A DNA stretch of 63,214 nt, counting the filler, from Dugesia japonica (Eukaryota), in assembly GCA_001938525.1 (NCBI GenBank). It is 6 parts of 6 records of this genome, joined end to end, with 100 filler letters (N's around TTAATTAATTAA, not from the genome) between each part and the next. Parts side by side here need not be neighbours in the genome. Positions count along the whole stretch, not along the records: positions 53,646 to 63,214 come from MQRL01032469.1; 5 more parts are not named here. The stretch is one strand, 5' to 3'. Below, one piece after another: positions 9,621-63,214 of the stretch. A program made the position numbers and the translations under genes. The first letter of the stretch is position 1; every line of letters begins with the position of its first letter. The notes beneath the pieces are model-generated. The model worked only from the letters and a program-made list of their open reading frames with translations. It made no database searches and was not told the DNA's origin.

Positions 9621-9633
9621 TCTTAACTGCAGT

Positions 9634-9733
9634 NNNNNNNNNNNNNNNNNNNNNNNNNNNNNNNNNNNNNNNNNNNNTTAATTAATTAANNNNNNNNNNN
9701 NNNNNNNNNNNNNNNNNNNNNNNNNNNNNNNNN
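9634..9733. other. Artificial scaffold linker (44 N + TTAATTAATTAA + 44 N); identical linkers at 23599-23698, 33116-33215, 43825-43924, 53546-53645
   Basis: The same 100-bp structure occurs five times, and TTAATTAATTAA gives stops in all six frames: a pseudomolecule spacer. Confidence 0.95.
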
Positions 9734-9735
9734 TA

Positions 9736-12783: not shown

Positions 12784-14135
<1,352 letters not shown>

Positions 14136-23157: not shown

Positions 23158-23235
23158 GAAAATCAGAGATCGATCCGAAATCCATATTTTTGAAAATCAG
23201 AGATCGATCCGAAATCCATATTTTTGAAAATCAGA
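23158..23235. repeat. 34-bp tandem duplication
   Basis: GAAAATCAGAGATCGATCCGAAATCCATATTTTT occurs twice plus a partial third copy. Confidence 0.85.
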
Positions 23236-24185
23236 AGTCAATCTGAGTGAAAAGATCAAAATCATCACCAACATTAATTTGGTTACTCGAGAAAATCTAA
23301 TGGTTCTCATCGTCAAGCTTCAGAAAATTGAGTCAATCTATCCATTCACAGTAGAATAATTACAAGAAATTCAATTTTAAAAATCCTTTCGCCATTCCGT
23401 GTGTAAATCAGCATTTAATTCCCAAAATGAAACCACCAAAAAATTATCAATTTAAACATAGAGAACTGGATTCATTCGAAGCTTTCTGCTAGTCATTTAA
23501 ATTATTGGAACATTAGTAGCTTCATTCAAAAATTGTGTACAAATTGTCAATTTTTCCTACACAGTATATCAATGTTTAAATTACTAGAAGTAACCAGTNN
23601 NNNNNNNNNNNNNNNNNNNNNNNNNNNNNNNNNNNNNNNNNNTTAATTAATTAANNNNNNNNNNNNNNNNNNNNNNNNNNNNNNNNNNNNNNNNNNNNAT
23701 CCCCCAGACAGAAAATAGATTTGAAAGAAGAAACAGTGGAGATCGAGAGTGATAATGAAGATCAATATAAATGCAAACAACGTCAAAAAGCCTAGCAACC
23801 CAACAATGAGAACGGAGTAATTTAGAACAATGAAGTTGCAGATGGAGCTGATAACACTAGTGTGAATTATGGAGTAAACAATTCGGTTTTTCAAAGATTA
23901 GTGAATGAAGAAAATGAAATCATTGTTGGGGTACCTGCTGAGAAGATAGTAGAAAACGTTGGCTGAAGAAAAACAGCCCTCAGGAGACCCCCTTCAAGAA
24001 TTTAATCTAAAGTCCCTTTTTAGATTTTCGGTAAAGGGCGGTTGACCTCCAACATCTACTTGAGGTGCACACCCGTATACCTTTAAGTTTGGGTTCATGA
24101 TTCCCTTAATTTGATTTACAAAACAAAATAAAATAGACTAATTAACTGAATATATATATATATATTGGATTCATTATTCAATAAA

Positions 24186-24538
24186 TTAGAGAGCACCCGG
24201 GTCTAACCACTGGGTAGGCTCTTCATCTAAGTAATTAAAAACCGCCTCGTCGTCGTTATTATCCCAGCAGATCCAGGCCTCGTTTCCTAATTGACGTGAC
24301 AAATAAGCGATATAATGTTGCAAAAAATCTATTTTGTGTTGCAACAACTGTTTCGTTTGCTCGGCTAAGTCATTCTGTTTATTGACGATTAGGTCGAGTT
24401 TCTTAATTAATTTATTTCGTTGAGACAGGTGTTTTAGGAGGGCACGCTCATTCTGTCTTTTGATGTGTCACTCCACTAAAAACTTTTGAATTAGACTATG
24501 GCAACATCGTAAGCTGCGAGGTAATTGAATACGAGGAA
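24186..24538 (-). pseudogene. LTR-borne ORF-d (coiled coil + acidic/aromatic tail), copy A, one internal stop
   Basis: tttatttcag|TT CCT: PRIQLPRSLRCCHSLIQKFLVE*HIKRQNERALLKHLSQRNKLIKKLD...WDNNDDEAVFNYLDEEPTQWLDPGAL; homologous to 60096-60457. Confidence 0.8.
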
Positions 24539-24678
24539 CTGAAATAAAGAACTACTAGTTAGATTATAGACTACTTCACTAAAAATATTTAACTAGAAGG
24601 AAAATTCTTTTCTTAAAGATAGACAAACAAAATAAGTCACTACAAAGCAAGGAGACATTTATTTACAGACATAAACGG

Positions 24679-25037
24679 TCAGGGCCGGGAGGTTTGTGTA
24701 CCTTTGTCTATCAACAGTGGCTCAAGAAGTATCCTTTTTCGTAACTCCAAAATTTCATTAACCAGTTTATTCTCTCGATCATGGAGGGACCGGATGATTT
24801 CGGTGAAAGATTCGGCTTGGGTCTTCCAGAGCCGCTCCTCAGCATGGGAGGTCTCTGCTTCCTTACGAAACGAAATACGTTTGGTTTTATAACGTTTCAC
24901 TTTGGCTTCTGCAGTGGAGGTTTTAGCCTCCAAACGACGCCTAGCAAGTTGGTAAAGCTCCCACGTCATGTCGGGATCTTCGCTATCCTCTCGGATTTTC
25001 TTTGTTGGAGCGGTTGCACGGTTGAGTGAGGAATGTA
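24679..25037 (-). CDS. LTR-borne ORF-c (coiled coil ending DKGTQTSRP), copy A, open frame
   Basis: ttttctttcatag|TA CAT: HSSLNRATAPTKKIREDSEDPDMTWELYQLARRRLEA...IRSLHDRENKLV...LEPLLIDKGTQTSRP*; homologs in the three other copies. Confidence 0.7.
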
Positions 25038-25204
25038 CTATGAAAGAAAAGGTAAAATGATATCAATAACTACGAAAAATACTAAGTTCAGCGACTATTC
25101 GACACTCAAATTATTATTATTTTCTTACCAAGATATTAGCAAACAGCAATGAACTCGATTTATGAAAAGAATATTTTATTAGTTACTAAGCAAAATTTTA
25201 AACT

Positions 25205-25560
25205 TTATAAAACAGTCTTGTTGATGGGAGTGGGGTCGGAATTCTCAGCACTTCCGCCACTTTCCGTGTTGCGAATGCTCCACAAGTTGTCGTTTACAAA
25301 AGCAGTTAAATTGTAGAGGGGAAGAAGTTGATTAGTGTTCATATCCATCATCGAGGGTCTTTCATGCCATTCTCGAGTCACACGGACTTCACCATCTACA
25401 TTCCGTTGCGTATTTGTGACAGAATAGTAAACAGCGCGTTTACGATCAGGTCCATTTCAGGTCCGATAGGCGTGACGCTCGTTCGCATCCCACTTACGTT
25501 CATCGTTGGCTTCTTATGGGGGCAGATTGGACCGATCTGCAACAATGCTGGCATCCCTAT
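25205..25560 (-). pseudogene. LTR-borne ORF-b (WNGPDR / LWxLRN protein), copy A
   Basis: ERKWDANERHAYRT*NGPDRKRAVYYSVT...FVNDNLWSIRNTESGGSAENSDP aligns with copy D 61203-61481 (EREWDTAEWRAYYKWNGPDRTREVYHTVT...FVTNTLWELRNNADGG) and copy C ~58510-58625 (NNWLWELRNSSGLGNKENVDP). Confidence 0.7.
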
Positions 25561-25798
25561 TGTGGGGATTTCTATATTTTTTGAATATTTTGCGACCTAT
25601 CCTGCAGTCTAATAGTATTTCCCATTTATAGTCCATATCGGTATTATATTGACTCCTAATTATAATGAATATGCAAATAAATTTATTATATTACAAGAGA
25701 GTTGTGAATAATAAAGTAAAAACTGACATTAAATTTTTAACAAATGAATTAAAATTTTATTTTTTGTAAACATTGATGAGAGTTGAAAAAGATAAGAA

Positions 25799-25987
25799 TT
25801 ATGCTTCTTCGTCCAGGTCCACCTTAAAAGTTAGAGGGAACACCTCGGCAAAACACCGCAAGTCTGTTTCGTCGGGATGCTCCACCATTTCTGGAAATAA
25901 CAGGTGTCCGATGAGTTGCCGAAGTCGAGCACGTTTTCTCTGCTTTAAAATTATTCGTAGCGTCTTCCTTAATTCACTTGCTATACT
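25799..25987 (-). CDS. LTR-borne ORF-a (basic, EHPDE motif), copy A
   Basis: ttattttcag|AGT: SIASELRKTLRIILKQRKRARLRQLIGHLLFPEMVEHPDETDL...DLDEEA*; homolog in copy C 58232-58384 (TLRVIRKDRRKTRRKQLLAHILSFEEIEHPDESNL). Confidence 0.55.
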   Translation of the reverse strand, partial: SIASELRKTLRIILKQRKRARLRQLIGHLLFPEMVEHPDETDLRCFAEVFPLTFKVDLDEEA

Positions 25988-26239
25988 CTGAAAATAATAT
26001 TATAAGATTTACTGTCTTGTTACATCACCTCGACCCTCTCTTTACAATACTGAACAAAAATTGGAATTGCATTGTTCAGTGATTGCATTATAAATATGAA
26101 TTTTAGTATTGGTAGTTAGTAACTAAATGATTCTAAGGGTCTCTATCTCAAAGAAAAAATTCGAATATAATTAACTATAGCGAGTAATATGATGGTAATG
26201 CCACTAATAACGAAACCTGTATTCGCTGTAAATTCTGAA

Positions 26240-26610
26240 GAAGATATCGTCGATAATTTATAATAATAATCGAGTCAATATCATGAAGATCCTAGTCCTA
26301 GTGATAACACTATTTAAGCATGATAGTAATGTCTTGATACGATGATAAAGTTAATAACCGCAATGATATTATTGATATTATTAAGAATTAATTAATAATA
26401 ATAATTAATTAATTAATAATGAATTAATTAATAATAATAATGATATTAATAATAGTAATAATAATAACAATAATAATAATAATAATAATAATAATCATAA
26501 TAATATTAACAGCTGTAATGCCCAAAATTGATAGTGAGGATTGCAATGCCTGATGAATGTAATAACGCCGACAAAAATAACAACCATAATTTTATTAAGA
26601 AATAACAAAA
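26240..26610. repeat. Degenerate (AAT)n tract inside LTR copy A; equivalent (ATT)-rich tract at 57800-58130 in copy C
   Basis: Direct low-complexity trinucleotide repeat at the same relative position in two copies. Confidence 0.75.
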
Positions 26611-27393
26611 ATTCTGTTACCAAAATCTCGACACAATTTAGTTAAAATCGGGAATCTGAGTGTAGCCATAGTAATGTCTTACATTATCAATGGGAATAAT
26701 AACTGAAAATTATGAATGTTGATCATCGTCACAACTCATGGTACTATTGGCTGAATTGTGGTGATAGCAGTGGTGTACTTGCCTGTTCTTACAGTGGGGT
26801 GAATACTACTGACTTCTTGAATACTAGTAACTCGCAACTATTCAAAGTGCATTATTAGCAATACGTGGCCAACAATTAAAAATATCCATGACATTGGTGA
26901 AATATGGTGAATTACTCTAGCTATATTAATAGGTAACATAATTTAGTGTGTAACATCACTTCTATTCCAATCAAGACTAACTCAGCGACAAGACACGTGT
27001 GCGAGTAGCTACATGCATATGGAGATTAGCTGATTGTAGACTTCACTTGTTTAACATAAATTTTAGATATTGGATTAAATGACGAGTTATTATTCCGTCC
27101 TTTACGTTGAATTTATTTTAACAGATAATTCATTATAGCTGTGGGCATAAAAGAAAAAAATTTCTGTTTTAAAGTGGACATCAAAATTTCAGGAATTGGT
27201 GTTCTGATCGTTGACTGAGTTGAACAGACAGTAATCACAATCTAAGCACTGTGATTGGGAGTATATTTAATTTATTACTCTTGTAGAGATATAAATAAAC
27301 AGATAAAGTCTTTTTCTTTTTATGTTGAATATTTATTTCTAAATTAAATTGTTACATTGCATAATCATTCTAACAATACTAAACGACACTTAC

Positions 27394-28060
27394 TGTTTGT
27401 AATAAGAATATCTGCAAAGGGATTTCGGAGATCAATTAATTCTTTTCTGATTTCTTTTGCGCTTGTTTTCCTTTTTCTTCTCCTTTCCTTTTAATGCTAA
27501 TTCAACAATTAAAGATAATCCCTTGAATAATTGTGATTGAAATTAATACTTTTCTTGACGTTAAGTAAATCACTATATCGGCTACAACTGATTATCTATA
27601 ACTTGTCCGTAGATGAAAATGAGAAAATTTTGTTGTTTTTGACTAAAATTCGGGGGAGTTTTATTTGATTTTAAATGCAACTCCGCATCATTGCCATTGA
27701 GTTGCTATTTTTAATTCAAATTTCTTGCTTCTGATTAGCGATGGTGCCAATTTTCGGATTTTTCAGAGATTTTTAGAATTTCCATTGGTGGCTATTTTTA
27801 AGTCACCATGTAATCTTCTGTTCTTTGTTTTAGTTTCTTTTTCTGGATTACCATTGGTTTATTCTTCAAATCTTCATAGGGGTATTCCTGATTGTGATAG
27901 GATTTTCTTGTTGCAAAATCATATTGCCCCTTGACAATTTCTTTCCAGATTTTCTTTTTACACAACTCCATGATTTTTCTGAGAGGAGTTATTCCCGGAA
28001 AACTGATTTTGGCTTAATTTTAATTTATTTTCTGATAAAATTAATTAATTTTCCTTTATT
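27394..28060 (-). promoter_or_regulatory. Putative LTR promoter (CCAAT boxes, TATA-like) plus noncoding leader exon ending at donor CA|GTAAGT (27393)
   Basis: 27678-27990 is strongly conserved in nucleotide sequence with 62880-63214 (copy D) and more weakly with 55720-56100 (copy C). TATA-like sites lie at 27660 (A), 56098 (C) and 62862 (D), and a GT donor lies 255-320 nt downstream in all three. Confidence 0.55.
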
Positions 28061-28399
28061 AATTAATTACTATTTTCTTGCCCATTTTCTTATTTTCTTT
28101 TTCAATAATTAAAATTTCTCCCAATTAGTAATTTAGTTTCAACCCCTGTTTTACCCGGTTGATGTCTTCTTCCTGCACTTTCCCTTTTTAACTGTTTTCG
28201 TAATACCGCAATTACGTCGATTTTCTCATTGTTGACAATTATTAAACTCAGTCTCTTTTTCCAATCTCCTTCCTTACAATTTGGACCCCTGGCATTGTTT
28301 TTCTTTCTCAGGCCGGTGTTTCACCCCAACAAATCGCTCTCTGTTTTGTTTAAATTCCGTCCCTGAATTTGTCGTTGTCCATCCCCGTTGCAGAATCCC

Positions 28400-29297
28400 T
28401 CAACTAAAAGACAGTTCAAGACGAAATTTAAGGTCATTACATACAAAAAAATTTTGGTTCAGTTGGAGTCGAAGGGGGTACTGGTTGTCATGCGGGTGCT
28501 GCTGGATTTAAAATTGATTGTGGAGGGTTTAAGATAAGTAGATCTCTTGGATGATACGGAGCTGGTGTGACGCTGTAGGTGATGACTTGGTGAGAAATAG
28601 GTCTACAGTCTGCGTGCGATTGCTGGAGTTTTTTGATCATTGAAAATTGTTCGATCAAATGCTGTTGTTTTTGGGTGATCTCTGTTTCTTTTTCTTGGCA
28701 CAGAGTTCTTAGTTCGATAATTTCTTGCTCTAGTGCAGCTTTATATTGCTCATAATATTCGCTTTTGCTTTGATATTATTGAATGATGCTTTCAAACTCG
28801 AGAGATGGTTTATCGATGCCGGCCCACACGCCTTCTTGATTGGCTAGGCTGGTCAAGAGTTGATTTTCTGTTGCCAGGCTGGTTTTCTCGAATTGAGTAT
28901 TGAACAACTCGATTCTTAATAGTTGTGTGTTCTCTTGCTCTATGGTCAATTGATTTTCAATCTCTTTTCTTTTCGGTTTGACTTCTTTGAATTTGCTTTT
29001 CCACTTTTACGCTTGCTGTATAGCGTTTATTTTTGCTCTATTTTCATCGAGGGTTCTTTTGACTATTTTCTTATGAGCGATGCATGCTATCTTTTTTATT
29101 TCTAGCTCGTGACGAATTTTCTCGATTTGCGTTTCGAGTCCGCTAATATAACTTTGTAATTGGAGATTGAGCATCGCATTCTGTTTTGCATCCAATTTCC
29201 ATTTTAAAGATTCTTGGACAATAATAAGGGATTGACTCTGAATTTGCAAAACTTGAATTTCATTGCAAAGATGGGTAATTATGTTTTCGTTACTCAT
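28400..29297 (-). pseudogene. Internal accessory ORF of the giant element: long coiled coil with Pro-rich tail, several stops
   Basis: tag|aaATG 29297: MSNENIITHLCNEIQVLQIQ...IQQA*KWKSKFKE...ALEQEIIELRTLCQEKETEITQKQQHLIEQF...PAPYHPRDLLILNPPQS, in one frame across stops. Confidence 0.6.
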
Positions 29298-29402: not shown

Positions 29403-30734
29403 TCATAATACCCTACGTTCAATTAATTTTCGATACATAGGTCATTTGTTCAAGTTTAGAGCACAATTATAACAAGTTTTAAAATGTCCGCGTGGAAGAA
29501 ATATGACTTGGATTGATTCGTCGAGGCAAATGACGCAGTCACTACCGATTAGAATCCATTTTTGTTCATAACTTACTTGCTTAGTAATGGTTTGTTGTGA
29601 ATGCGGGTTCAGTTCCAACGGTGTTACTATTTCTATTCCCTTTTCCGCAACTATCTTAGCAATTAGTTTGCTGGTATTTTCTTGATTCAGATCGAGTATT
29701 TTGGTTTAAATTTTGCTTCCGAATTTTTTTATAAGTTTATTTTTGTATTTATACTGTTTCTCTATACACTCTCGTTCCTTTCATTGGTTACTTAACATCG
29801 TACGATTTTTCTAATGTTTCTATTGGGTTGATCGTCACATGAGTTCTTTTTATTGATAGTTGTTTTAGGATTCCAAAATTAATGGTCAATCTTTAAACCA
29901 TTGTATCTTCTTTCTGAGTCTCGTTATGATTTTTTAACTTGGATTTTTTCTTGACCATAATTTTCTTAATTGCTAATTTTTCCATCATGGTCGTTGTTTT
30001 TGCCATATTTAACAAAATATTTAAATTTCTTTTAAGAATAAATCGTTTTAGTTTTGTTGGGTTGCTAGGCTTTTGATGTTGTTTTCATATTTTGTTTTTC
30101 TCGATCTTTATTTCTAATTGCTTTACCATATTTGTTTCCTCTTCTAAATATCTTTTCTGTCTGAGCGATGATACCTAGCAACCACAGAAATTTGTGCTAC
30201 TCTCTCTAGCAACACGATCCTTCTTTTTCCGGATTCAGCAGGATTATGCTGTATCCCGTCTTAGTTGTTTCAATTTCTATCCAGCTCGTGTTTTTAAAAT
30301 TAAACCATCTTCGTCAAGATTAATTCAAGATGTACTCAAAACTCAAAACTATGTTATGTTCATAACGTTTATTTCCATCAAGATCATTCGTTCAGTTCTA
30401 CCACTTTCTTCGATTTCTCCTTAGTTATCTCGGATACTGGTCTCGGTGTTTGCGTTAATGTGCGAACTGTTGCAATCATTACGCTCTCTCAATCCGAATA
30501 CAATTTGATAATGTCAGCCATTGCATGACATGACTGAGATAATGCAATTATCTGTAATTTGGTGTTCCTTTCACGTAGTACTGAATTTTTTGGTTGAAGC
30601 TCGATGATTTTATTTTGTAACTTTTTCTGTAACGAAACGCATTTTTTGCGGATGTCCGCTACAGAAGTGTCTGTAAATTTTCTTCTCTCCGACACTGAAA
30701 TTATTGAGATGTAAAATTCTTTAATTAACTTCAT
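29403..30734 (-). pseudogene. Internal accessory ORF(s): coiled coil ending in an IAP/XIAP-type C3HC4 RING finger, degenerate
   Basis: 29540-29403 reads DCVICLDESIQVIFLPRGHFKTCYNCALNLNK*PMYRKLIERRVL*, i.e. C-x2-C..PCGH..C-x2-C..CPxCR with three Cys lost by single-base changes. Upstream is heptad-rich from tag|ATG 30734; continuity across ~29700-30480 is uncertain. Confidence 0.75.
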
Positions 30735-30919
30735 CTAATCATATTATTAAGTTTTATAATTATTGATCATAATTCTTTTAAAAATCGTTTTAAAATCGCT
30801 ATCACTATCGTTCAATATGAATTTATCGTTAATTCTTTTAACAGCTATCATTATCATTAAATAACCGTAAGACAAGAGAAAATGTTAGAGCTAATACTAT
30901 ATTGAAATCAACAAAATAA

Positions 30920-31441
30920 TCAGACAATAGTTTCCTGTACGTCAATGCTTTCATTCAGTGGGATTAGGATTTGACGTAATGTAACTTCAATTTTAGCGCT
31001 CAATTGCTCCGACATCATGGAGAATTCCTCTATCTCTATTTGTTTAGAACGTGACTTTTGTAGTAATTGTTGTTGGTACTGATTCAGCTCGGTAGTTTGG
31101 ATCAGTAGCGATACCAATTCTTTTTCTCGTTGCTATTGTTTGGTGGTCAGTTCCACAATTCAATTCTCCTGCTGATCGACTCTGTGTTGCAGTTGGTCGA
31201 TGCAAACCAGCTGATCCGTGTGTTGTTCTTTCTGTCGAAGTAAGGTCATCTGTAGCCGTTTTATCTCTTCCTCTTTTAAATGCATTTGTTCCTGCGTGAT
31301 CCACCATAAATCCTGATCAGTTCCATACTCCCCGATGGAATCCCATAAATTCGGCATATTATTTGTCACGCTAGTTTGAAAGAAGCAACGTTCTAATTGC
31401 AAAGATTCTTTGGCCACCTTCCTGTTAATTGATTTCGGCAT
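30920..31441 (-). pseudogene. Internal accessory ORF: Gln/Glu-rich coiled coil, two stops
   Basis: tag|aATG 31441: MPKSINRKVAKESLQLE...KEEEIKRLQMTLLRQKEQ...QQEN*IVELTTKQ*QREKELVSLLIQ..., one frame joining ORFs 31160-31456 and 30920-31117. Confidence 0.6.
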
Positions 31442-32596: not shown

Positions 32597-32852
32597 CGGT
32601 GCTCACTCGCAGATTCTTCTGCTATATACAAATTTGGACATTTATTTTTATTCATTTTTGTATTAGCATTTCGTATAGGTTTTATGTTTACATATGAATA
32701 CCGGTGCTCACTCGGCATCATAGATTTCTTATTGAACACAGTATGTTGTACGGAGCTCACCCGATACACATACTTTTATTTTACAAGTAATGTGCGGTGC
32801 TCACCCGTCACATATAATTTTGTTTCTTCATATAATGCACGGTGCTCACCCG
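32597..32852. repeat. Array of five 13-bp motifs CGG(T/A)GCTCAC(T/C)CG with AT-rich spacers
   Basis: Copies at 32597, 32702, 32751, 32795 and 32840 (spacing 105, 49, 44, 45). Confidence 0.85.
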
Positions 32853-33215
32853 ATACATATAGTTTTCAGAAATAATTCTTGTCACGATGAAATTCATGAT
32901 CATCGGACCGGCACGAATCAATTTAGAAAAATAATAATATTTATCATTTAAAATAATATTTTCTAAAGTTTCCTGGAAACTTATAAATACGGATATCTAC
33001 ATGAAAATTTGTAAATAATTTAATATCCTTAATTAATATTAGCATAAAATTAACTCCTCTTTCTCCTCATATAAATTTTATTTAAATATTCTATTGCTTT
33101 CCCTAAATTTAATTANNNNNNNNNNNNNNNNNNNNNNNNNNNNNNNNNNNNNNNNNNNNTTAATTAATTAANNNNNNNNNNNNNNNNNNNNNNNNNNNNN
33201 NNNNNNNNNNNNNNN

Positions 33216-33294: not shown

Positions 33295-33885
33295 GTTATG
33301 TATTATGGACTAATAAAGGCCAATATGTGAAAATATTGATATTTAATACGAAAATGTAAATAATTGTTGAAAAAAATGTTGATATTGCAAATTTGTTAAA
33401 TAATGTATTTCTCTAACTATTGGCATCAGTGTTTGTTTTAACAATTATTTTATTTCTCATATAATGTTCGAAACTGATAATATCAATATGGGAAATAGAA
33501 AATTCAAAATAAAATTAAACGAATAAATATCTATTTTCATCTATGAGAAACAATATATTATATCAGTTGTATTGCTTTTTATTAAATTAATTCTATTATA
33601 CGAACCAATAGGAATTATTACAGTCATTATTGAAAAACAAATAATCAAAGAAACTGATATTAAAACATATTTTGTTATAATTCTGTTGTAGTACATTGGA
33701 AAAACAATACAAATTAACTTATCCAAAGATAATAAGATCATTAAATAGATATCAATTATTCCGAAAATCCAAGTAAAAGTTGAATTACTCCGGACCATAC
33801 AATAATAATACTTATAATTTAATAAATAATTGGGAAACGTTTCATTTTCTTTTCTTAAAAATTCCCACATCAACTTTTCGACTCT
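33295..33885 (-). pseudogene. Rhodopsin-class GPCR fragment (TM3-TM4 exon plus TM6-like segment), probably a pseudogene
   Basis: YYCMVR...IDIYLMILLSLDKLICIVFP (DRY-equivalent S-x-D-K), hydrophobic TM4 and a loop Cys, then a stop. Downstream AISTFFSTIIYIFVLNINIFTYWP with stops. Confidence 0.6.
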
Positions 33886-47899: not shown

Positions 47900-48690
47900 A
47901 AGATTAAAGTAAATAAAAAAATTGTCCCTCTTGGAGTTTCTCCTTATGAGGTTCTGGAAATCCTCTCTCTATTAAAAAACATCTTGCCAAATATTTCATC
48001 GATACTGTCAGTTTTGGCTTTATTACATGTGTTCTATCTTTCATCATCACTGGTTGTGTGTTCCTCTCATTTGCTCTTTTTAATGGTAAATTTTTTACAC
48101 GTATTTTCTGTCTATCCTCTTCAACTCTATTTATGTATGGTTTCCCTAAATTTCCATAATTCATCTTTTTTGTATCATACACATATTTTCATTTTCGGCG
48201 ATTTTTTGAAAATGTTTCTTGTCTTTGTAAATCTTCGCTAGGTATCTCATTTCCGTGATCTTGATATCAAGACGCGTCGTCAATGTTTTTCTCAACTTTG
48301 TATTTTCACATTCTTTAAGAGTACGTCATTAATTATTTCATCTTTACTTAGTCATGAATTCATGACATTATCTATCAGATTTCTTACTCTGCTTTCGAAT
48401 GCTGCGAATCTTTCTCCAGTCTCTTGTTTTGCCATTGCAAATTCTAAAACCAGCTTTGTAAACGATTTTTTTAAAATCATAAATGTGTCTGTGAACCATT
48501 TTGTGAACAAATTGAATTCGTTAACGATAGTCCCTTCCCCGATATCCTTAAACCATTTTGAAGTTTCTTCTACAACTTTCCCATCATATTTTCTGACATT
48601 AAAATTTATTAATTCTTGTGCATTTTTCAGGAAACGCATCTAAATTTGCTTTCCGTTGATACTGTTGTCTTGTTGTCGCCAGTTACAATA
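47900..48690 (-). mobile_element. Ty3/Gypsy 5' fragment: PBS-like site + gag
   Basis: GTAAC-TGGCGACAACAAG at 48681 (PBS-like), followed by ORF 48352-48639 with the gag motif AKQETGERFAAFESRVRNL. Confidence 0.7.
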
Positions 48691-50789: not shown

Positions 50790-51970
50790 TATAATAAAGA
50801 TATGTAGACGAAATTGCCTTACAAAGTGTTGTACAATCGTGAAAACAGAAAGAGAAAACAGCCTACATTGCCACGACTCCTGCCCTAAAAAGCAAATCTT
50901 AGTATTTTGAAATGAGAGATTAAACAGGCTATCAGTAAGAATAATCCGACGCTAAGAACTATTACGAATGAACTGCTTTTTGAGGTAAGCAACTAAGTAT
51001 TGGTATATATGCATAAACGATTAAATATGGCGAAGAATTTCTCGAATTAGAGAAGTGATGTATCTGTACAAAGTCTTACATCAATGAACTTTTCAATACC
51101 AAAAGAGTATGAAGAATTAATTCTTTATAATACCACCGCAAAGTCTTCGAATAGAATCCTGGCCCTGGGAAATGTAACTCTTTTAATTGAAGTAAAAATA
51201 GTCAAGAAGTTTGGACATGGATCTTTCAATAAAGCCTTAGATCTTTTTTATCAACTTTATACATAGCATAAGTAACTCATATCCACCCTGCGTTTAATTT
51301 TAAACATTAAATACATAAATCAGATGTTACATTTAATTACTCCAAAATTTAGCACTTTATAAAGTAAAAAAAGAGCAGTTACAAATGCATTTCAAAATGT
51401 GAAAGTTAAAGGTTGTTATTTTCATGTGTCACAAAGCATAAAAAAATAAATAATGTTGAACGGAAAAGTACTTTTGATATTGATATGAAACTTGAACTTA
51501 AATCTTTGGCAGATTTAGCATTTATAGGCATAATAGATGTGAAAACTGTGTTTTATAAATGTGATGAAAAATTTCCAGACGAAGAAAGTTAGAACAAAAT
51601 TTTGAGTTATTTCTTCACTAATTACATTGAAGATCCAGTGGGTAGAATTGTAAATTTCAATAGAGCTATGAAACCATTATAATAACACAGAGTTGGAAGA
51701 GTCTCCCAAGACAACCAACTGCCAAGAAGGCTTTCATTATCTTCTTAACTCATTGTTCTTACATAATCATCCTAGTTTATAGAACCTATTTGATGGATTA
51801 AAATGAGATATAGATGCCAGTATTTAACAATATCATATACTGCATATTCTTGTTCAGAAAGGTTAACAAGATATATAAAAGATAGCAAAAAATTGTATAG
51901 CCGTTCATGAATATAATAAATTGGAAGATAAACTACAATATTTGAAGAGATTGACTAAATTTCAAAAATC
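50790..51970 (+). mobile_element. MULE transposase remnant (FLYWCH + DDE)
   Basis: CRRNCLTKC...HCHD, NFSIPKEY..NRILALGN..FGHGSFNKALDLFYQLYT, VKGCYFHVSQSI (CxFH), PKTTNCQEGFH. Confidence 0.85.
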
Positions 51971-53645
51971 AAATGTTGTGTTTGTTTCCATTTTCATTGT
52001 TATATTTATTTTGTTTGTTTTTCTCTACTTTAAAAATGAAATTAATTAAGAATGAACATCCGAGGTTCTAAATATGGTGTCAAATAATAAATTTATATTG
52101 TGAGTAATTTTCTTGTGCTCATGTTTTAGGGCGGCTTCAATTTTTTGAGATGAAACCACCATCATAGGTAACAAGTTAATAAGAATAAAAAAGTAAAACC
52201 TTGCGCTGTCCATAATTTTGATCGCATCAAATCGATCTTGGTATCATTCTAATGAAAATTAAAAAGTACTTATACATTGCCTAAAGAACTTTGGCCATAA
52301 AATTCTTTGTTTGCACCTGAACGATGTTCAATCTAAAACAAAGATTTTTTTGAAATTGCATTTAACAAAGATAGATACGTGGTATGATTACCGTTACAGT
52401 ATTGTTTGAATCTTTAAGAAGCGGCGTATTCTATAATGCAATCATTAATTCTATCAAGCTAGATTGTAAAAAGTTAATAAGGATTAAAATTTGATAACTC
52501 GCCCAACCTTCATATTTAATCGGATAAAGTCGGTTTTGGTATCATTTGATATCAATCACCATCAAACTTTCCTATTAAACTTATCAAATATTTTATACCA
52601 TTTAATAGAGAATTAAAAGAAAAATATGTTTCACTTATAAATTATTGAATGCAAATGTTTTCCTAACAGTGATATCGATAAACAAAGATTTTGGCTATAC
52701 GGTGGGCGGTTCCAAGTTTTTGAGTTGAAATCCACATCATCGGATGAAAATAAAAAAGTATTTATACCTATGGACCTTAAAAGATCCATGGCGAAATGTA
52801 TTTCCTTCATATCGAAAAATTAAAAACAATCTGGTAAGTAGATAGTAGCGTATCAGCCCACCTAAAATCTTCATTTTTAAAATTGAGTTAAAACCAATAT
52901 ATGCATACTATGATGACAAACTAAGTATTGTTGGACTCATAAAAGCTTGAGGAATATAACTGCTATTTTGGAATTTCAATCTGACGTATTGGTGGCGAGT
53001 TATTAAAGATTTAAAATTTTAAAGTTTAAAAGCGCACACAGACTTAACTTTCCATCATTTAGATTTGAATTTGATACTACCAAGTAGACAATTAAAAATA
53101 CCTATTAATTGTTTTAAAGGATTAGTATGAGAAAATGTATACCTTACCAGAAAATTACATAAGAAAAAACAAATGATATTTAAAAAATATTTTAAAAACG
53201 GATTTTTGATACCATTTTTTAATTAAAATGCATCAAACGAATATGTAGCGAGATATTCGCCATTAAAATTTTAAACATGAAAAGAATTAATAAATTATCT
53301 ACTTATATATTCTTGCGAAATTAAATCATACTTTTCAAATTATTAAATAATACCATATCATATAAATTACAACAAACCAATGAACTTTAATGGGAGTTTA
53401 TACATCAACTGGTATAATATTTATCATGTTTTGTAAGGTTCCTATAGATTTCTTTAGAGTTTAATATCATTGCGCATCCAACAATGTCAAGTTTGACCAG
53501 AAAATATGATTTTAAATGAACTTTGACCTTTTAAATCGATATGTANNNNNNNNNNNNNNNNNNNNNNNNNNNNNNNNNNNNNNNNNNNNTTAATTAATTA
53601 ANNNNNNNNNNNNNNNNNNNNNNNNNNNNNNNNNNNNNNNNNNNN

Positions 53646-54704
53646 CCATAGTCCTAATAATTTAACCGGTCTCTCATCATGATTTTCGGTTATTTCTTGA
53701 CCGTAGAATATTGATATATGAAGACAGTGGGGATATCGACATGTCCTGGGATCTATATAAACTGGCAAAAAGAAAATGGGAGGCCCATATTGCCACTGTT
53801 AATAGTAAGGTGAAACGTTACAAAAGTAAATGTCATGCATACCGACTGGAAGCTAAAGCTTTTCACGCACGAGAACGCGTGTAGAAACAACAACTGGAAA
53901 AGTTCGCCGATGTAATACGGTCCCTCCATTATCGTGAAAATAAACTGATTTCCGATTTACTCGAAATGCGTAAGTGGATCCCCTTGGAGCCTTTATTGGT
54001 AAATGAAACTACTCAAACCCAAAATTGATTAATTAATTGTTTTATGAATAATTAAACCCTCCTGTATAACTTGCTTTGAATCATTAATTATTCTGTTTAT
54101 TAGTTGACATTTACGCTGTTTCTTTCTAGTGCAACGGATTCGTTTACCCAATTCACTCAAGCGTTGTCACAGACTAATCGAAATATTACTACTCGAACGC
54201 CATTACGCTAAACAAAATGAGCGCGCACTACTACATCACTTAATCCAACGCAATCGTCTAATAAAGAAATTGGATATCATAGTAAAAAAACAGGATGTGT
54301 TGGTGAATCGAACAAAACAGATTTTGGTAAATAAAATCGATTTTCTAAATAGGTATATCGCCAACCTGTCCACTCGATAGGAATTAGAGAGTTGAACAAG
54401 ATAGAATAATGATGATGATGAGGCTGCATGCGATTTTGCGAATGACAAGGCCGTCCAGTGGCTTGACTCTATTTTTTTCTATTTAAATGATTATTAATGT
54501 CTCAAATTGATTGATTAATGAGGAAATAATGAACCCGAACAAAAGGTACTTGTGCATGCACTCCAAATACATGTTGGGAGTCAAAGGCCTTGTACTAAAA
54601 ACCTGAAACAGGAACTTTAGGTCAATTCTTCGAAGGGTCCCCGGAGGGCTGTCTTTTCCCCCAGCCATATTTTTTCTACACACAACTCAGGTGGAACCCC
54701 AACA
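53646..54704 (+). mobile_element. Giant LTR copy B (3' ~1.06 kb, truncated by scaffold start) with ORF-c (~53718-54028) and ORF-d (54130-~54480)
   Basis: EDSGDIDMSWDLYKLAKRKWEA...IRSLHYRENKL..PLEPLLVNETTQTQN*; tttctttctag|TG CAA CGG ATT; ends GGTGGAACCCCAACA. Confidence 0.8.
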
Positions 54705-54990
54705 ATTATATTATTAAAGAACAGTGAATCCAATATTTAATTAAAAATCAATATTTCATAGAATATCATTAAATATTATTTTGCTAATATATTGGATAAA
54801 AAACGTGTTACTTATTTAATTTACTTTATAATTTTTAACGTGTAAATTTTATTATGCATATTTTTATTGTGTAAAGTTTTTTTATTTTACAATTGCAGTT
54901 ATTGCGAAAATAATTGGTGGACGTAACCATTGATCATTTTTTAGAATTCATTTATAATAAAAGCTTCGATCAAAATTTGTTTTTTTGAGA

Positions 54991-55027
54991 TTAATTCGAT
55001 ATTTCGACTTTCTTCATCAGGAATTAA
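54991..55027 (-). ncRNA. Minimal type-I hammerhead ribozyme in a Penelope-like terminal repeat
   Basis: Minus strand TTAATTC-CTGATGA-AGAAAGTC-GAAA-TATC-GAATTAA: perfect core, 7-bp stem I, palindromic ATAT stem III, AUC cleavage triplet. Followed by the dispersed repeat ...GATCGAAGCTTTTATT...ATCAATGGTT..GTCCA.CAATTATT. Confidence 0.72.
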
Positions 55028-55452
55028 ATTTTCATTTAAAAGTATTTTTGATTATTTTTAGTTAAAATTTTGAAGTATGAAAATTAATAGTTAATGGTGT
55101 TTGAATTTATCTTTGTTTAATCACATCAATTATTTAAAAATATAATTATGCAATTAATAGGTATTAATACGAAAACTTCTAAGAATTTATTGAATTCTTT
55201 ATTAATTATTCCTCATTAATTTTTTTTCTTAAATGAATAATTATTAATTTAATTTTAACCTAAGGAAACCTTTGAATTTCCTACATTTAATTATTATTTT
55301 TTCACTTTAAATTTTACATGGTTGAATAATTTTAATTAATTTACGTGTAATGTTTTTAATTGATTGAGAGGTTAATTATTATTCTTTTAATTATTTTCAT
55401 TTGATTATTATTATTTTATTATTATCGTTTTATTATATTTGATTATTATTAT

Positions 55453-58400
55453 TTTTGGGGTGAAACACCGGTTGATAAAAAACAATAATTGACAATGGCC
55501 TCAAACATAGGCAAAGAAGACAAAAGCAAAAACTATTCGCATTATATTAATTAATAAAAGAACATAAAATACTATTGAATAATGAAAGGGGAGCTGTAAT
55601 CAATAAAGTACTGAGCAGATGATTATATAACGAAGGTGTAATAACATTAATTAAAAAAATTTATTTTTTAACATGAAAAAACAAGAAAAAGAGTATTAAT
55701 CAAAATAAAGAAATAATAGAAAAATTAATTAATTTTATTAAAGAAAAGAACTTAAAATACGAGAAAATCAGTTTGGGACGATTTACTCCGTCTAGGAAAA
55801 TCAGAAGTAGTGCAGCAAAGAAAATTCCGATTCAAAATGATTCACAGCAATTGAATTTCTCAACGGAAAAAAGTTACCAACACCAGAAGAGTTTGTAAAA
55901 AGGGTTTGAAGATTCAACCAATAGCAGACCAGAAAATAAAAACAAAGAAATGGAAAACACGTGGTGTCCTAAAAAAATGGTACAACAGAAAATTGTCAAA
56001 AACTTTAGAATTTTAGGCAAAAACCCAATAAAAAACAAGAATGGCAAAACAAAAATAGCTAGCCAACAAGAAAGTAGTTGGGGTGCACATGAAAAGCTAT
56101 AAAAGCTAGCGAAAATTTAATTCAAAAAACTCAATTTACTTTAAACAATTAAAAATTAACTTGCTCGCTGAAGTTCATCGATTTAAACCACACCTCAAAT
56201 TGGACAGAATTACAGTAAAAGATTTCGCTACATTATAATTTGGACTAATTTTCATTTAAAGGATAATTCAGATTCAGTTAATTCCAATAATTCGTGCTAC
56301 CACAAACACTGTCAGACAAAACCTGTTCCAGAATTTCACTTTATAAATCAAAATAGTAAATAGTACTATGCTATATTTGTTTTATATTTTAGTTATTGAA
56401 TGATTAGGAGTAGAAAAAATTAACGATTAAGTGGCATTTAACTAATTACTAAGTAATATTATGCATCATTAACGGGAGAGATCAAAATTTGTTTTTTATC
56501 AGATACAGACTTTCAACTGCAAAACCAATTCGTTATACTGCGTCATAGATAATATAGTATCTCCAGAAGTAGCATTAGTTTTCCAACCTAAATTTTGCCT
56601 GTGTGTGTCAACTCATCGATCGATAAATTGAATATCAGATTATGATAATCTACTCCTAAAGTAGGTGTGTATAGATATCTTGTCAGACAAAAATATTTGC
56701 TTCACCACGGTAATTTGGCAGCATTGATTAATCTTTCTGGCTGCATATAAAATAATCTTACCAGCAGCAGCATATCATTTGTTACAAAATAAATTTTTCT
56801 TTTACTATATAAACAGAATGAAATGTATCACAACCATCATGGCCGTAGAAAATTCACAACATGAATGGTGAACATGACTATACGAATTTCTTTATACTGG
56901 ATTATTTCTCCTTCGATCGTCTAATGTTTCTAATCCCGGAGATTATTTCACTCGCAATATTAGAGAGAATGTCTTCTCGCTAGCTATCAGAAATCGATAC
57001 CCGTCCGGAAACAGACACTGAACTCACTCCTCTGACTTTTTTGGCTAACAGTAGTGGTATTACCTGGGGCAATGGGGACGAAATTGTTAAGATACTGGTT
57101 CTATCTATTATGAGTTGGGGCAACTAAGTCTCGATTATGATTCTTCAAGCAGAACTATATTTCCAGGAACAGACTATTACCCCGCACATTGCTGTAATCA
57201 CGAAAGGCATTCTTCATCAAAACTTCAGTGTGCGGATATGTTGTCATCTGTCTTCACTACTGACATGTCCACGAATATTGGTATCTCTTTATTATTCCAA
57301 CCATTTATCACCATCTTACCTGCTAGTGGCTTCAGATACAAAATTACTGATTTTGAGTGTGGTTTTCATGTTAATAATTTATAATTATTATTAATTATTA
57401 TGAAAAAATCATTTATTAATATGTCCATAAATTTTCTTTGTTGCGTTCGAGAATGCAACGAGTGTTATGACATACTCGATATGACTGCGTAACTATCATG
57501 GTAACTGCTTTAATAATGACCCGAGTGACATTAGTATTATTAATATTAGTAGTTCTTAGTTATCAATCAGTATGTCATAGGAACTAATGGGTCTAGTTGG
57601 ATTTACTAATTCATTACAGGTCGGATTCGGTTAGCTATAGTGCCGGTGTGCGTAATAGAACTAGTTACTCTGTAATTTAAGGCATCTCGTACCCATCACT
57701 AGGTCACCCTTGCTAAATTGGTATGATGTAACGAATAGTAGTAAACAGCATTAAGTCCTCAGAATAATTATTACTCACCTTCGTAAGGAGTGTGAAATTG
57801 ACTTTATAATTATTACTATTGTAGTATTGTGAACGATGCGATCATTATTATCACTATTAATATTATCATTATTACTGTGACTGTTGTAGTATCACTATTG
57901 CTATTATTAATTTTGTAACTATTTTAACTACTGCTATTGTCATTTATATTAGTATGATTATTACTATTATTATTATTCATTGCATTAATCTTATCATCAT
58001 TAATATTACAAATAGGATTGTTATTATTAGTACTATTATTTTCATAAGCACTAATATTACTGCGATTGATGTAACCTTTATTATTAGTTTTATTGATACT
58101 GGTATCGACATCAGCTCCATTATGATTAATAAGGACTTTGAGATTCTGCATTTGCAGTCGGTGATTTTATGTATTTAAGAAATTGTTATTCATGGTGACA
58201 GTTCCTCATTACAATATCCGTTATTCTGATGAACACTTTAAGGGTGATTCGAAAAGATAGACGAAAGACCCGTCGCAAACAGTTACTAGCTCATATTCTA
58301 TCATTTGAAGAAATCGAACACCCGGATGAGTCTAATTTACAATCCCCTTTAGAGCACTGCGTTGATATAGACATTGATTTTTAATTACATTAATCTACTC

Positions 58401-59875
58401 TTCTGTTTTATGATTTAAATAAAAAAATACCAATCCCTTCTTAATCTGTATTAATTTAAATTTTCTAGTAAACAAGGCTCAGCAAGGTCTAGTGTAGCAA
58501 AGCCCAGTATTAACAACTGGTTGTGGGAGCTCCGCAATTCATCCGGATTGGGGAATAAAGAGAACGTTGACCCAGAGCCCCTACCGGCCAACATCGAAAT
58601 GTCGGATGACACTGAGCATTCATGAAAATTCAATGGTGTTTACTTTTAGTAGTGATTTCTTAGAAGTAAATGAAGTGGAATATCTGATTATGTCTTAAAA
58701 TATTTTTGTTCTTTAGTGTATCAGCACGCTTGATCCGGTATAATTAAATAAGATTGTTTTTCGTCGGATTTAATCTGATTTTTGACACCTAATAAATCTT
58801 TTTATAATAAAATTAATGAATAAATTTTAGTGCTCTCCTCGCCCTAACCAAAAAGGTCTGGGAAGATAGTGAGGACATAGAGATGTCCTAGGACCTTTAT
58901 AGATTAGCTAAGAGGACATGGGACGCCGAGACAGCCGCCAGAACGCCAAAGTAAAGCGCTACCAGCGTAAATGCCGTAACTTTAGAATATAAGCAGAGAC
59001 CTCCAATGCTTAGGAGCGTGCTTGGAAACATCAAGTGGAGTCCTTTGTCGATATTATCCGGTCCCTCCATGACCATGAGAATAAACTGGTATCTGATTTG
59101 TTGGAAATACGGAAGCATGTTCCTCTGGAGGCTTTGATGGTAGATAAATCCACCCTAACTAGAAATTAATTACCTAAATATTTCATTGTAAATAAATATT
59201 ATTGTTACTGCTTTAATATTTTAATTGATCTGACTGGTGTCGTGAATTTATCATCTCTTTATTTTTTTAGTGCCACGAATTCAATTACCCACCAGCCTTT
59301 GCCGTTGTCACCGCCTTATAAAAAATTATTGCTCAAGCGTCACATCAAGCGCCAAAATGAGCGAGCTGTTTTGAGGCACCTAACATAGCACTGTCTAATA
59401 AAAAAATTAGATATCATCGTTAAGAAGGAAGGCGAGTTAGCAGAACATACAAACCAAGTCCTCCTACATAAGATTGCGTTCTTACAGCATTATATTGCCA
59501 ATTTAGCCAATCGCCTTGAGCAGGAGACTTGGACCCGTTGAAATAACAACGATGACGAAGCCGCTTTTAGTTTTATAGATAGCGGGTCTACCCAGTGGTT
59601 AGACCCTGGTGCGCTAGAATTTATGTAATTTAGCGAAAAATATATTTTTATTTGAAGTTTTATTATCAATAATGTTTAATAAATAAAATAATTGGCAAAG
59701 TAATGAACTCGAAATAAAGGTATACGAGTGAGCACTTCAAGTATACGTTGGAAGTCAACCGCTCTGTACCGATAGCTTAATCAGCGGCATTAGGTAAATT
59801 CTAGAAAGGGTCCCATGAGGGCTGATTTTTCCCCAACCATATTTTTCTACTACAAACTCAGGTGGGACCCCAACA
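55453..59875 (+). mobile_element. Giant LTR copy C (4423 bp), solo LTR with 4-bp TSD
   Basis: Starts T(T)TTGGGGTGAAACACCGG, ends GGTGGGACCCCAACA, with TTAT on both flanks. Contains decayed ORF-a (58232-58384), ORF-b (~58480-58625), ORF-c (58831-59169) and ORF-d (59271-59628). Confidence 0.82.
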
Positions 59876-60095
59876 TTATTATTATTACTATTTGGGTTCC
59901 ACCTGAATTTAGAGTAGAACAACACGGCTGGAGAAAAAACAGCTCTCAGTGGACCCTTTCAAGAATTTAACTAATGCCCACACATAAATACACACACATA
60001 TACCTTTACTTTCGGGTTCATTAGTTTTCCCTTAATTTTGGTTATCAAAGAAAGCAAAAATTTTTTTAAAATAAAATTTATATGGGTTTTCTAAA

Positions 60096-60457
60096 TTACA
60101 TAAAGTTGAGAGCACCCGGGTCTAACCACTGGGTTGGCTCGTCATCTAAAAAGTTGAACGCGGCTTCGTCATCGTTGTTGTTCCAACAAATCCACGTTTC
60201 ATTTCCTGGTTGTTTGGCTAAGTCATCTATGTATTTTTGTAAGAAATCGATTTTGTGTTGTAACAACTGTTTGGCCTGCTCGGCTATTTCACCCTGTTTC
60301 CTTAGTATAGCATCCATCTTTTTAATTAACTTGTTTCGCTGAGAAAAGTGCTTTAAAAGAGTCCTTTCGTTTAATCTCTTACAGTGGCATTCCAATAACA
60401 ATTTTTGAATTAATTTGTGGCACCTACAAAGGCCGGTAGGGCGGCGAATTCGTGGCA
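60096..60457 (-). CDS. LTR-borne ORF-d, copy D, intact 120-codon frame
   Basis: ttcttatttcag|TG CCA CGA...WNNNDDEAAFNFLDDEPTQWLDPGALNFM*; three homologs in the window. Confidence 0.7.
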
Positions 60458-60600
60458 CTGAAATAAGAACGTTAAATCAAATATAAGAAGATGGAATAAT
60501 TAGTTTATCACTGTATAATTAGTTAACTAAGGAAAGTAATGAGAACTACAATACTTGGAAACAACTTTTATTAATAGATTAACAGAGAAAATGTTAAAAC

Positions 60601-60954
60601 TCAAGGACGCAAAGTTTGAGTGCCTTTATCGACCATCAGCGGTTCGAGTGGCATGACCTTCCGTAAAAGTAAGATATCTGAGTTTATTCTCACGATCATG
60701 GATGGGCCGGATAATTTCAGTGAACGATTCAACTTGCGATTTCCATAAACGCTCTTGTGCGTGAGAAGCCTCCACTTCTTTCCCAAAGGCTATACTCTTT
60801 ATCTTATATCGTTTAACTTTACTTTCATTTGAGGCGGTGTCCGCCTCCAAGCGTCGTTTCGCCAAACGATAGAGGTCCCACGTCATTTCGGGATCCTCAC
60901 TACTTTCTTTTATTTTCTTAGCGAGAACCATATAGCGGTTAAGAGATGAATGCA
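60601..60954 (-). pseudogene. LTR-borne ORF-c, copy D, one frameshift near 60680
   Basis: ttctgtttttatag|TG CAT: HSSLNRY...DPEMTWDLYRLAKRRLEA...IHDRENKL / LRKVMPLEPLMVDKGTQTLRP*. Confidence 0.78.
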
Positions 60955-63214
60955 CTATAAAAACAGAAGTAAATAAGATAATCACAATCGGTGGATGATG
61001 TAGTTATCAACCCTTAAGCAATCATAGGCATTAAAGTTCATGATTCGACACTAATAAAGTAATAATAAATAGCAAACTGCGTTCGTAACGCTTGTAACGA
61101 CACGAGTACACGACTACTTAATTAAACACTTTTAGCTTTATTATTATTATCAAAACACAATGAATAGCGATAAAACGTAGTTACACTTAATATAATTCAT
61201 TGTCAATCCGCAGCGACATTTTCGAAAGCGCCACCATCTGCATTATTTCGCAACTCCCATAGAGTATTTGTTACGAACTCCTTTAACCCGGAGAAAGGTG
61301 GTAGATGAGCTGACGATACTGGTACGACTGCGAGGCCGTCTTGCCACTCACTCGTGGTCTATAGCTCTTCTATGTTAATGGATGAGAAAGCCGTAACAGT
61401 GTGGTAGACCTCTCGAGTTCGGTCGGGTCCATTCCACTTGTAATATGCGCGCCACTCGGCCGTGTCCCATTCTCGTTCATTATAAATAAATAAATAAATA
61501 TCAATAAATATCAATATACAAAAATGACAATTTTCTTTATAAAACGATCAGGATAAGAGTGAATACCAATGATAATGATAATACTTAACATAATGATTAT
61601 CGCTAAATTCACTAGGTACTTCGATTTGTCATGATTGGCTTCCATAGTCCGTGATGAATCTTAATACTGACTGAAAATTGGATAATTATTTGACGATTAC
61701 TGAGCATAGCTTGAGAAAAACAGGAATGTTAAGCTTACTCCGCAGATTTGTGAGCAAGATCCACCATCACTTGCGAGACACTTTTATTGGGAAAACAAGT
61801 AAAATTTACATATGTCTGGAAATAATGTTGTGAACAGGGGACTATATGGCGTCTGCACAAAGGGGGGATTCGGTTGCATTATGGAATCAGTAGTTGAGGT
61901 TTATATCCAACTGATAAGATCAATGAAACGAGGGTTGACATAGTTACACAGTAATCAGAAAATTCACTAATTTGGCCATAGCAAAGATTGGCTTGATTTA
62001 AAGAGAAATTCCTAAGACGAAAGTTTGCCGACAACACATGTATAACAGATTCACCACGAGTTTATACATGTTTAAATCCAACACGGATTTAATTGTTTAT
62101 TGTTTTTATTGCAACACGAATAGTTTGCAACTATCATTAGAAAATATTTACTATCGAAAATCGATTATCTGACTCAACTGTGATGAGTAATCCATACAGT
62201 TGTGCACACCCGTCCTCTTAATTTCATATCACGGTTACAAAAAAACTGTTTATGTACACATACAGTTGTTGTTGTTAAGCATAACGATGCAAGGCAGTAA
62301 TTCGATTAAAACAGACAATGATGATTTGAATTTTACATGAGGCATTACGATCTAAGTCGATGAATTTTCTGTGGCTCAGTGTGTGACTCAAATGCTTTAA
62401 TAATGGAAATCTTGGTAAATTTAGAAATTCAATAAATCATGTTTGATGTTTAATAGATCGCATAAAGTTAAGCAATTTTAAAAAAATTGTTTATATTTCA
62501 TTTACATAAATATATATAAAATAAATTTCACGGAGCATTACTTACTTGTCTAGTTTAATAATTTCGATTCTGCAGCGGGACTATCTAAATTTTAGTGGTA
62601 ATGTAGAGCGGCTGGGTAATGGATTTCTTCATCTGACTTTCCTTGTGAATAACGTTAATTTCGATTAATCTATAATTTTTTTACTCTGCTATTTTCCCAC
62701 AGATTTCTGTATATGCGTCTCTTCGTTTTTCACTAATTAATCCAAATTAATTGATTTATTCGTGGATAAATTCGTGTGATGATAAGTTAGAAATAGTAGG
62801 ATTCTGTAACACTTGTTAAAACTCAAATTTGAGGGTAATTTTTATCTAAAGTATGTGAGTTTATATATGATTTTCCGATGCAACTCGGCATCATCACAAT
62901 TGGATTTCTATTTTAAACTCGAATTTCTTGCTTCTGATTGGCGATGGTGCCAACTTTCAGATTTTTTCATAGATTTTTAGAGTTTCCATTGGTGGCCTTT
63001 TTTAAGTCATCATGTGATCTTCTGTTCTTTGTTTTATTTTTATTTTCTGGCCTCTCATTGACCCGTTTGTCAAATCCCTGTAAGGGTCTTCCAGCTGATG
63101 ATGAAGTTCTCTAATCGCAAAATCCTGTGCTCTAATGCTTTGTCAAATTTTCTTTTCAGATTTTCTTGCACCAAGTTTCTATGACTTTCCTGAGTGGAGT
63201 TATCTGTAAAAAAC

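Follow-up and report, generated by a model that had tools for sequence, protein, structure and literature searches.

The 63,214-nt window of Dugesia japonica DNA analysed here (assembly GCA_001938525.1) contains a repeated unit of about 4.4 kb, which is quite probably a long terminal repeat (LTR) and which carries up to four short open reading frames (ORFs), termed a, b, c and d in their order along the unit. LTRs are usually treated as non-coding, and this 4.4-kb LTR-like unit holds several selected candidate exons. The interpretation favoured here, with a confidence slightly better than even, is that the unit belongs, as its LTR, to a giant Ty3/Gypsy element of Burro type. The selected frames would serve as alternative last exons of spliced mRNAs for accessory proteins, in a cassette that would lie in U3 (the unique 3′ region) and be transcribed from the 3′ LTR.

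The unit is represented by two complete copies (A and C) and two partial copies (B and D), and the coordinates originally predicted for A (4408 bp, minus strand), C (4423 bp, plus strand) and the partial B and D were all confirmed (Table 1). Copy A is likely a 3′ LTR and copy C is solo-LTR-like. The original prediction that the units are colinear holds at the two ends of the unit (the initial ~750 bp and the final ~1.1 kb), to which nucleotide similarity between copies is limited, and for a and b at the protein level, but not for offsets 750–2400 (the middle ~1.7 kb), where nothing aligns except a common TAT-rich tract. Likewise, the prediction that all four copies keep the same small proteins stands for c and d, present in four of four copies, but not for a, found in two (A and C), or for b, found in two (A and D) and as a C-terminal remnant in C.

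Coding sequence within the unit is under strong purifying selection. For c, the ratio of nonsynonymous to synonymous differences per site (pN/pS) is 0.22–0.38 in all six copy pairs, with pS at 0.73–0.84, i.e., with saturated synonymous sites. For d, the ratio is 0.20–0.40 over the six pairs, and the four pairs with computed confidence intervals (CIs) give 0.20–0.37, with CI upper bounds of at most 0.49 and third-position excess at P values from 3e-4 to 8e-9. ORF a yields 0.28 (A–C pair) and b yields 0.55 (CI 0.41–0.74, A–D pair), and the b remnant in the A–C comparison gives a non-significant 0.58 with a CI reaching 1.01. The sense frame outscores all five other frames in every comparison, and the spacers and both terminal blocks lack codon periodicity (0.66–1.08 in frame 0). 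The claim of a selected coding function is thus upheld, with values well below 1 for c, d and a, an intermediate one for b and none of this signal in the spacers; the peptides quoted in its support are present, and third positions vary most between copies. Because pN/pS is low in all six pairs with synonymous sites saturated, selection acted after the subfamilies split, and because most present copies (c and a of A and d of D apart) are decayed by stops or frameshifts, it acted on active ancestors.

The selected frames were originally described as four small genes, a description that needs revision: both c and d start at sites resembling splice acceptors, and d lacks an ATG. Judged from these sequence signals, c and d have the look of terminal exons rather than of independent genes. 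In four of four copies, conservation of d sets in, in phase 1, directly behind an AG with a pyrimidine-rich tract; these acceptors contain 10–13 pyrimidines of 15 and rank in the top 0.8–15% of 728 AGs. The acceptors of c in A and D, also in phase 1, rank in the top 1–2% of the same set. AATAAA occurs within 45 nt past the stop at six of twelve ORF ends (a 2/2, b 1/3, c 3/4, d 0/3), against a mean expectation of 0.94 by shuffling, with six reached in 0 of 5000 shuffles, and these signals persist in spacers that have stopped aligning.

The unit is probably an LTR because its termini fit the integrase pattern, its inverted repeat is just 9 bp long and no transposase was found in the sense frames of A, C and D. 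The end signal of LTR integrases is TGTTRNR..YNYAACA (PMC3601003), which is found at both ends of A and at the 3′ ends of B and C; the 5′ end of C, which starts TTTTGGGGT, is imperfect, as is the degenerate 3′ end of D. The shared bounding termini of the original prediction are therefore present as 9-bp TG..CA ends common to the copies, but both are perfect in A only. The two ends of A match as an inverted repeat at 9 of 9 positions and then at 10 of 20 and 18 of 40, so that only the outermost 9 bp form inverted tips and the unit as a whole has a direction.

Two conserved non-coding blocks, one near each end, are common to the copies. The 5′ block is a candidate enhancer or upstream promoter, and the 3′ block a candidate R-U5 (the repeat and unique 5′ regions), in which predicted RNA structure is weak (−6.4 kcal/mol) with no covariation gain. 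A protein-coding role was rejected for both blocks, as codon periodicity is absent. Within the middle section, the TAT-rich tract lies upstream of ORF a in both A (26393–26509) and C (57841–58040), and a broken ORF of ~165 codons (56878–57381), whose 97-aa piece has no Pfam match, is present in C only and is possibly a fifth, subfamily-specific cargo.

In the favoured scheme, an upstream leader exon would be joined by splicing to one of the four frames; a, b and c would each use their own polyadenylation (poly(A)) signal, and d would use the element's main signal, located within the final 250 bp. Most likely, the cassette would sit in U3 and be read from the 3′ LTR as is sag of mouse mammary tumour virus (MMTV), with the 5′ block possibly acting as an extra promoter. 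The product of c would be a coiled coil, predicted to be bound and dimerised by host LC8 via its DKGTQT motif, and that of d is also predicted to form a coiled coil, whose acidic, aromatic tail would recruit host proteins. Together with the inhibitor-of-apoptosis (IAP)-type RING gene upstream of A (see below), they would act as accessory proteins that modulate the host or traffic RNA, rather than as enzymes.

Several observations weigh against this scheme. No TGG, the start of a primer-binding site (PBS), lies within 8 nt at any of six flanks, none of which is a known 5′ LTR, and the contig joints listed include no such end; no paired direct copies are seen in the window, where the sequence upstream of A stops at a linker (33116); and no reverse transcriptase (RT), integrase or gag-pol was found over 4.8 kb of sequence upstream of A (Pfam, three sense frames, RING match only), although in a giant element pol could sit further upstream than the 4.8 kb scanned. 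The predicted identity of the unit as an LTR is thus strengthened by its termini, its 9-bp inverted repeat and the failure to find a transposase, but with neither paired copies nor PBS nor RT/integrase it is not proven. Two further marks named in the original prediction exist but carry little weight: TTAT does flank C on both sides and is compatible with a target-site duplication (TSD; 4–6 bp in Ty3/Gypsy), but it is embedded in TTA repeats on both sides and is therefore uninformative, and the polypurine tract (PPT)-like sequence before A is weak, occurs in one copy and has 15 of 20 purines, a content that 4% of window 20-mers reach. AATAAA, expected near the R/U5 border, follows d in C only (+52) and is not conserved in the 3′ block. 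As to the exons, the acceptor for c has a weak pyrimidine tract in C and was not found in B, that of a is ambiguous, and b looks ATG-started (ATG in A). The candidate GTAAGT donor was not found in C by the pattern used, and no leader exon or conserved donor was identified. The 45-nt window for AATAAA was chosen after inspection and applied to copies that are related, not independent; the antisense control gives 3 of 12, and none of the three d ends contributes. The LC8 motif at the end of c is exact in two of four copies (A and D), while TQT alone is left in B and the Q is missing from C. Finally, three RNA runs (13.6, 11.6 and 10.5 million records) placed 293, 73 and 36 reads on C and D, the only copies covered, with no splice joint; nearly all of these reads fit partially (291/293, 73/73 and 36/36), on both strands, and they neither demonstrate nor exclude expression.

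It is somewhat unlikely that the LTR is itself a multi-gene transcription unit, with a promoter in the 5′ block and a leader that joins by splicing to one or other of the four terminal exons, each separately polyadenylated; if it is, hundreds of solo LTRs could, independently of gag-pol, supply accessory proteins, among them an LC8/dynein client. The corresponding full rival, which retains the LTR but places its main promoter in the 5′ block, with a–d downstream of the start, every solo LTR a self-contained multi-gene unit, and splicing added to the original prediction, is unlikely. In its favour, the non-coding 5′ block shows 75% conservation and precedes the candidate GTAAGT donor (offset 938 in A, ~1000 in D), and in MMTV sag can be transcribed from upstream U3 promoters (PMC12789967). 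However, neither a start site nor a leader is seen, there are no RNA joints, and C has no such donor. For the original claim that the genes lie downstream of the LTR promoter, a U3 location resembling that of MMTV sag is an at least equally likely alternative. Moreover, the 5′ block as the genomic start would imply an R of ~3.5 kb, which is unusually long. This length and the U3 location of MMTV sag and of nef are the reasons why the U3 cassette is favoured over an upstream promoter. Expression from solo LTRs is possible under either model, since the upstream U3 promoters of MMTV can transcribe sag.

A quite improbable alternative is that the unit is a non-autonomous TGT..ACA DNA transposon of Ginger type carrying cargo exons, and that it landed in an unrelated element, to which the ORFs upstream of A would belong. 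The ends of Ginger1 and Ginger2 share TGTNR with the unit, and the TSDs of Ginger2 are 4 bp long and arise in AT-rich targets (PMC2836005). Flanks are TTA-like in four of five cases (background 0.4–4.6% each), no PBS or RT is seen, and the two sides of A show likeness to one and the same RING-gene region. However, Ginger elements have terminal inverted repeats of 40–270 bp and an integrase-like transposase (PMC2836005), whereas the unit has neither: its inverted repeat spans 9 bp, no transposase was found by Pfam in the sense frames of A, C and D, and no open frame exceeds 127 aa on either strand. In addition, no TSD accompanies A, the flanks of A are oppositely oriented, and lasting selection on cargo would be hard to account for if no transposase were present. 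A preference of the element for microsatellite targets is possible; several contig joints show other termini beside TTA-rich letters, in a joint table biased towards such joints. Least probable is the view that the ORFs are captured host-gene or DNA-virus fragments carried passively, for which the host-gene-like acceptors and poly(A) signals and the variable gene content (a missing in D, most of b in C) may speak, but which conflicts with selection in all six copy pairs with saturated synonymous sites and with the lack of a homologue in any search.

AlphaFold models predict a single helix for c (residues 25–101) with unstructured ends, and a single helix for d (6–79) with a low-confidence acidic tail. 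This tail could presumably also be read as an LIR-type (LC3-interacting region; autophagy) or activation-domain segment. The LC8/DYNLL-binding motif is [D/S]-K-x-[T/V/I]-Q-[T/V] and often lies beside coiled coils (PMC3078936). This pattern has four matches in the 126,424 six-frame residues of the window, two of which are at the end of c, where DKGTQT in A and D fits the motif at six positions and lies in the predicted unstructured tail beside the predicted helix. A paralogous relationship of c and d was rejected (hhalign probability 0.1%).

The proteins had been described as unrecognised, and sequence, profile, language-model and fold searches indeed gave no homologue for c or d. No candidate passed in a sequence search with c among proteins near its length (0 of 8), in a profile search with d (0 of 518; longer proteins not covered), among metagenome contigs (0 of 430) or among viral contigs (0 of 4), and a Foldseek viral search returned nothing at E 0.001 for either model. 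The single match of the c profile among 1.84 billion representatives, an immunoglobulin-repeat-like protein aligned via 15 weak repeats, was rejected, as was a match of c to Pfam BRE1 (E 7e-4), which is below the cutoff and reflects a generic coiled coil. A language-model protein atlas placed c in unnamed clusters only (0.91, low recognition) and returned nothing for d, and PHROGs gave one weak match among seven queries, in an ORF upstream of A. ORF b was compared with Pfam only, and a with Pfam and PHROGs only. These blank searches are no proof of novelty, because the libraries seem poor in the repeats of this host: even the RING piece found upstream of A gave 0 of 39 passing candidates against longer proteins.

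That piece is the C-terminal part of a decayed gene, all ten of whose matches are XIAP, cIAP or BIRC7; no BIR match was found by Pfam in the sense frames of this 4.8-kb upstream stretch. Other decayed ORFs on the same strand accompany it (Table 1), and a tandem repeat with a 45-bp unit (2.7 copies, 32747–32866) lies further upstream, before the sequence is interrupted by the linker at 33116. Because the 3′ flank of A resembles the RING-gene region in reverse, the arrangement suggests that the element of A inserted into a related element.

Contigs of run X1 match C and D at no less than 80% identity in 6941 cases and at no less than 99% in 288. Summed X1 depth, which is not convertible to copy number, is 2300–11900 over c, the d of D and the 3′ blocks, 460 over the d of C, 1300–5000 over the 5′ block of D, and 11–63 over most of the middle, save for two TTA tracts that draw microsatellite contigs. 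This profile shows a large family sharing the same conserved islands.

The window has a GC content of 27.6% and joins contigs of ~10 kb, to which contiguous sequence is limited, by identical artificial linkers, each made of 12 bases (with stops in every frame) between two runs of 44 N, at 9634–9733, 23599–23698, 33116–33215, 43825–43924 and 53546–53645. Because of these joints at about every 10 kb, neighbourhood across linkers carries no evidential weight. Copies B, C and D all lie in one 10-kb stretch (53646–63214), with C and D tail to tail inside a single TTA/TAA tract; microsatellite targeting or an insertion hotspot is possible there. Elsewhere, two minus-strand ORFs (47904–48639) have no Pfam match, the second of which we take to resemble a retrotransposon gag fragment. 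A rhodopsin-type G-protein-coupled receptor gene fragment lies at 33541–33870 (Srsx, E 4e-4, below cutoff). The segments 2–259, 13684–13890, 16046–16228 and 51084–51266 are presumably DNA-transposon transposase-like fragments (MULE-, hAT- and mariner-like). A short interspersed repeat occurs in six places with 72–90% likeness (7182–7365, 7996–8103, 11910–12103, 45752–45952, 46289–46353 and 54820–55038), and a perfect tandem repeat with a 34-bp unit at 23157–23235.

Table 1. Positions of the unit copies, their candidate exons and signals, and the sequence around copy A.
Feature	Position	Strand	Remarks
Copy A, complete unit	23924..28331	minus	4408 bp; both 9-bp termini; no TSD; decayed same-strand ORFs upstream
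Copy C, complete unit	55453..59875	plus	4423 bp; first terminus imperfect; sits in TTA microsatellite
Copy B, partial	53646..54704	plus	last 1059 bp: c, d, terminal block; cut off at assembly linker
Copy D, partial	59889..63214	minus	b, c, d; extends past window edge; tail to tail with C, 13 bp between
Conserved non-coding 5′ block (A)	27640..28002	minus	75% identical to D 62845–63214, 64% to C; no codon periodicity
Conserved non-coding 3′ block (A)	23924..24110	minus	74–76% identical to B and C
ORF a in A	25799..25987	minus	~60 aa; counterpart C 58199–58384; absent from D; AATAAA 40 and 36 nt past stop
ORF b in A	25205..25636	minus	ATG at 25636; two internal stops; D 61203–61481 (one stop); C remnant 58508–58625
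Candidate exon c in A, intact	24679..25037	minus	phase-1 acceptor; predicted 77-residue helix and unstructured tail
Counterparts of c	D 60601–60954; C 58831–59169; B 53714–54028		D: frameshift near 60680; C: frameshift, stops; B: one stop
Candidate exon d in A	24186..24538	minus	one internal stop; phase-1 acceptor, no ATG
Candidate exon d in D, intact	60096..60457	minus	74-residue helix predicted, with basic N-part and acidic tail rich in aromatics
Counterparts of d	C 59271–59628; B 54130–54470		
DKGTQT, LC8/DYNLL-binding motif match	24691..24708	minus	end of c in A; also D 60613–60630
Candidate splice donor GTAAGT (A)	27386..27393	minus	offset 938; D: 62545, offset ~1000; flanks do not align; weak
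PPT-like purine-rich tract	28332..28351	minus	ends 2 nt before 5′ terminus of A; 15/20 purines
Decayed ORF	28491..29297	minus	~270 codons; two stops; coiled-coil-like by composition; no Pfam match above cutoff
C-terminal piece of decayed IAP-type RING gene	29445..29705	minus	PF13920, E 1.1e-8
Two further decayed same-strand ORFs	30492..31441	minus	Q/E-rich; unrecognised
3′ flank of A	23699..23806	plus	74% identical over 117 bp to 30054–30169, opposite orientation

Long LTRs, spliced accessory proteins and extra ORFs are each already known, and the putative LTR-internal exon cassette is apparently new: among titles and the openings of abstracts, no report was found of a retrotransposon LTR with several selected exons, each with an acceptor and a poly(A) signal, a matter on which Grohme 2018 and Repbase may bear. 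The present unit suggests that repeat libraries may hide coding exons in long LTRs. The Burro elements (GYPSM1), which have been proposed as proviruses, exceed 30 kb in total, have an internal region of up to 25 kb, encode a polyprotein of ~5000 aa with gag, env-like, BCL2-like and RT parts, and carry accessory ORFs as well as BIR and other apoptosis/ubiquitin cargo (PMC6431247), in a host genome with more than 70% A/T (PMC11410931). Compared by description only, the element of A resembles them in a cargo of apoptosis/ubiquitin type (here an IAP-type RING, with no BIR match) and in its AT-rich genome, but the review describes no ORFs inside Burro LTRs (PMC6431247). Among plant elements, Ogre has LTRs of 1.9–6.5 kb, and Athila, Grande and Retand have conserved extra ORFs of unknown function, which are described in the internal region rather than in the LTR (PMC6431247; PMC7264820). 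For c, the similarity to LC8/DYNLL clients would be that of a motif in a predicted disordered tail beside a predicted coiled coil; the motif alone is shared, and the +2 position in c is not acidic (PMC3078936). The nearest parallels in gene position are sag of MMTV and nef of human immunodeficiency virus (HIV), which lie in U3 (PMC12789967). However, MMTV (sag/rem) and HIV (nef) are vertebrate retroviruses with one or two such genes, in contrast to the four found here, each with its own putative acceptor and poly(A) signal, and no sequence likeness to them was found. Among invertebrates, the CERV protein of the C. elegans element Cer1 is an LTR-retrotransposon accessory protein made from spliced mRNA, whose RNA-export role may serve as an analogy for the present proteins (PMC10309623). 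The unit thus points to accessory genes in the style of complex retroviruses in an invertebrate element, which would be duplicated with each insertion and left behind in solo LTRs.

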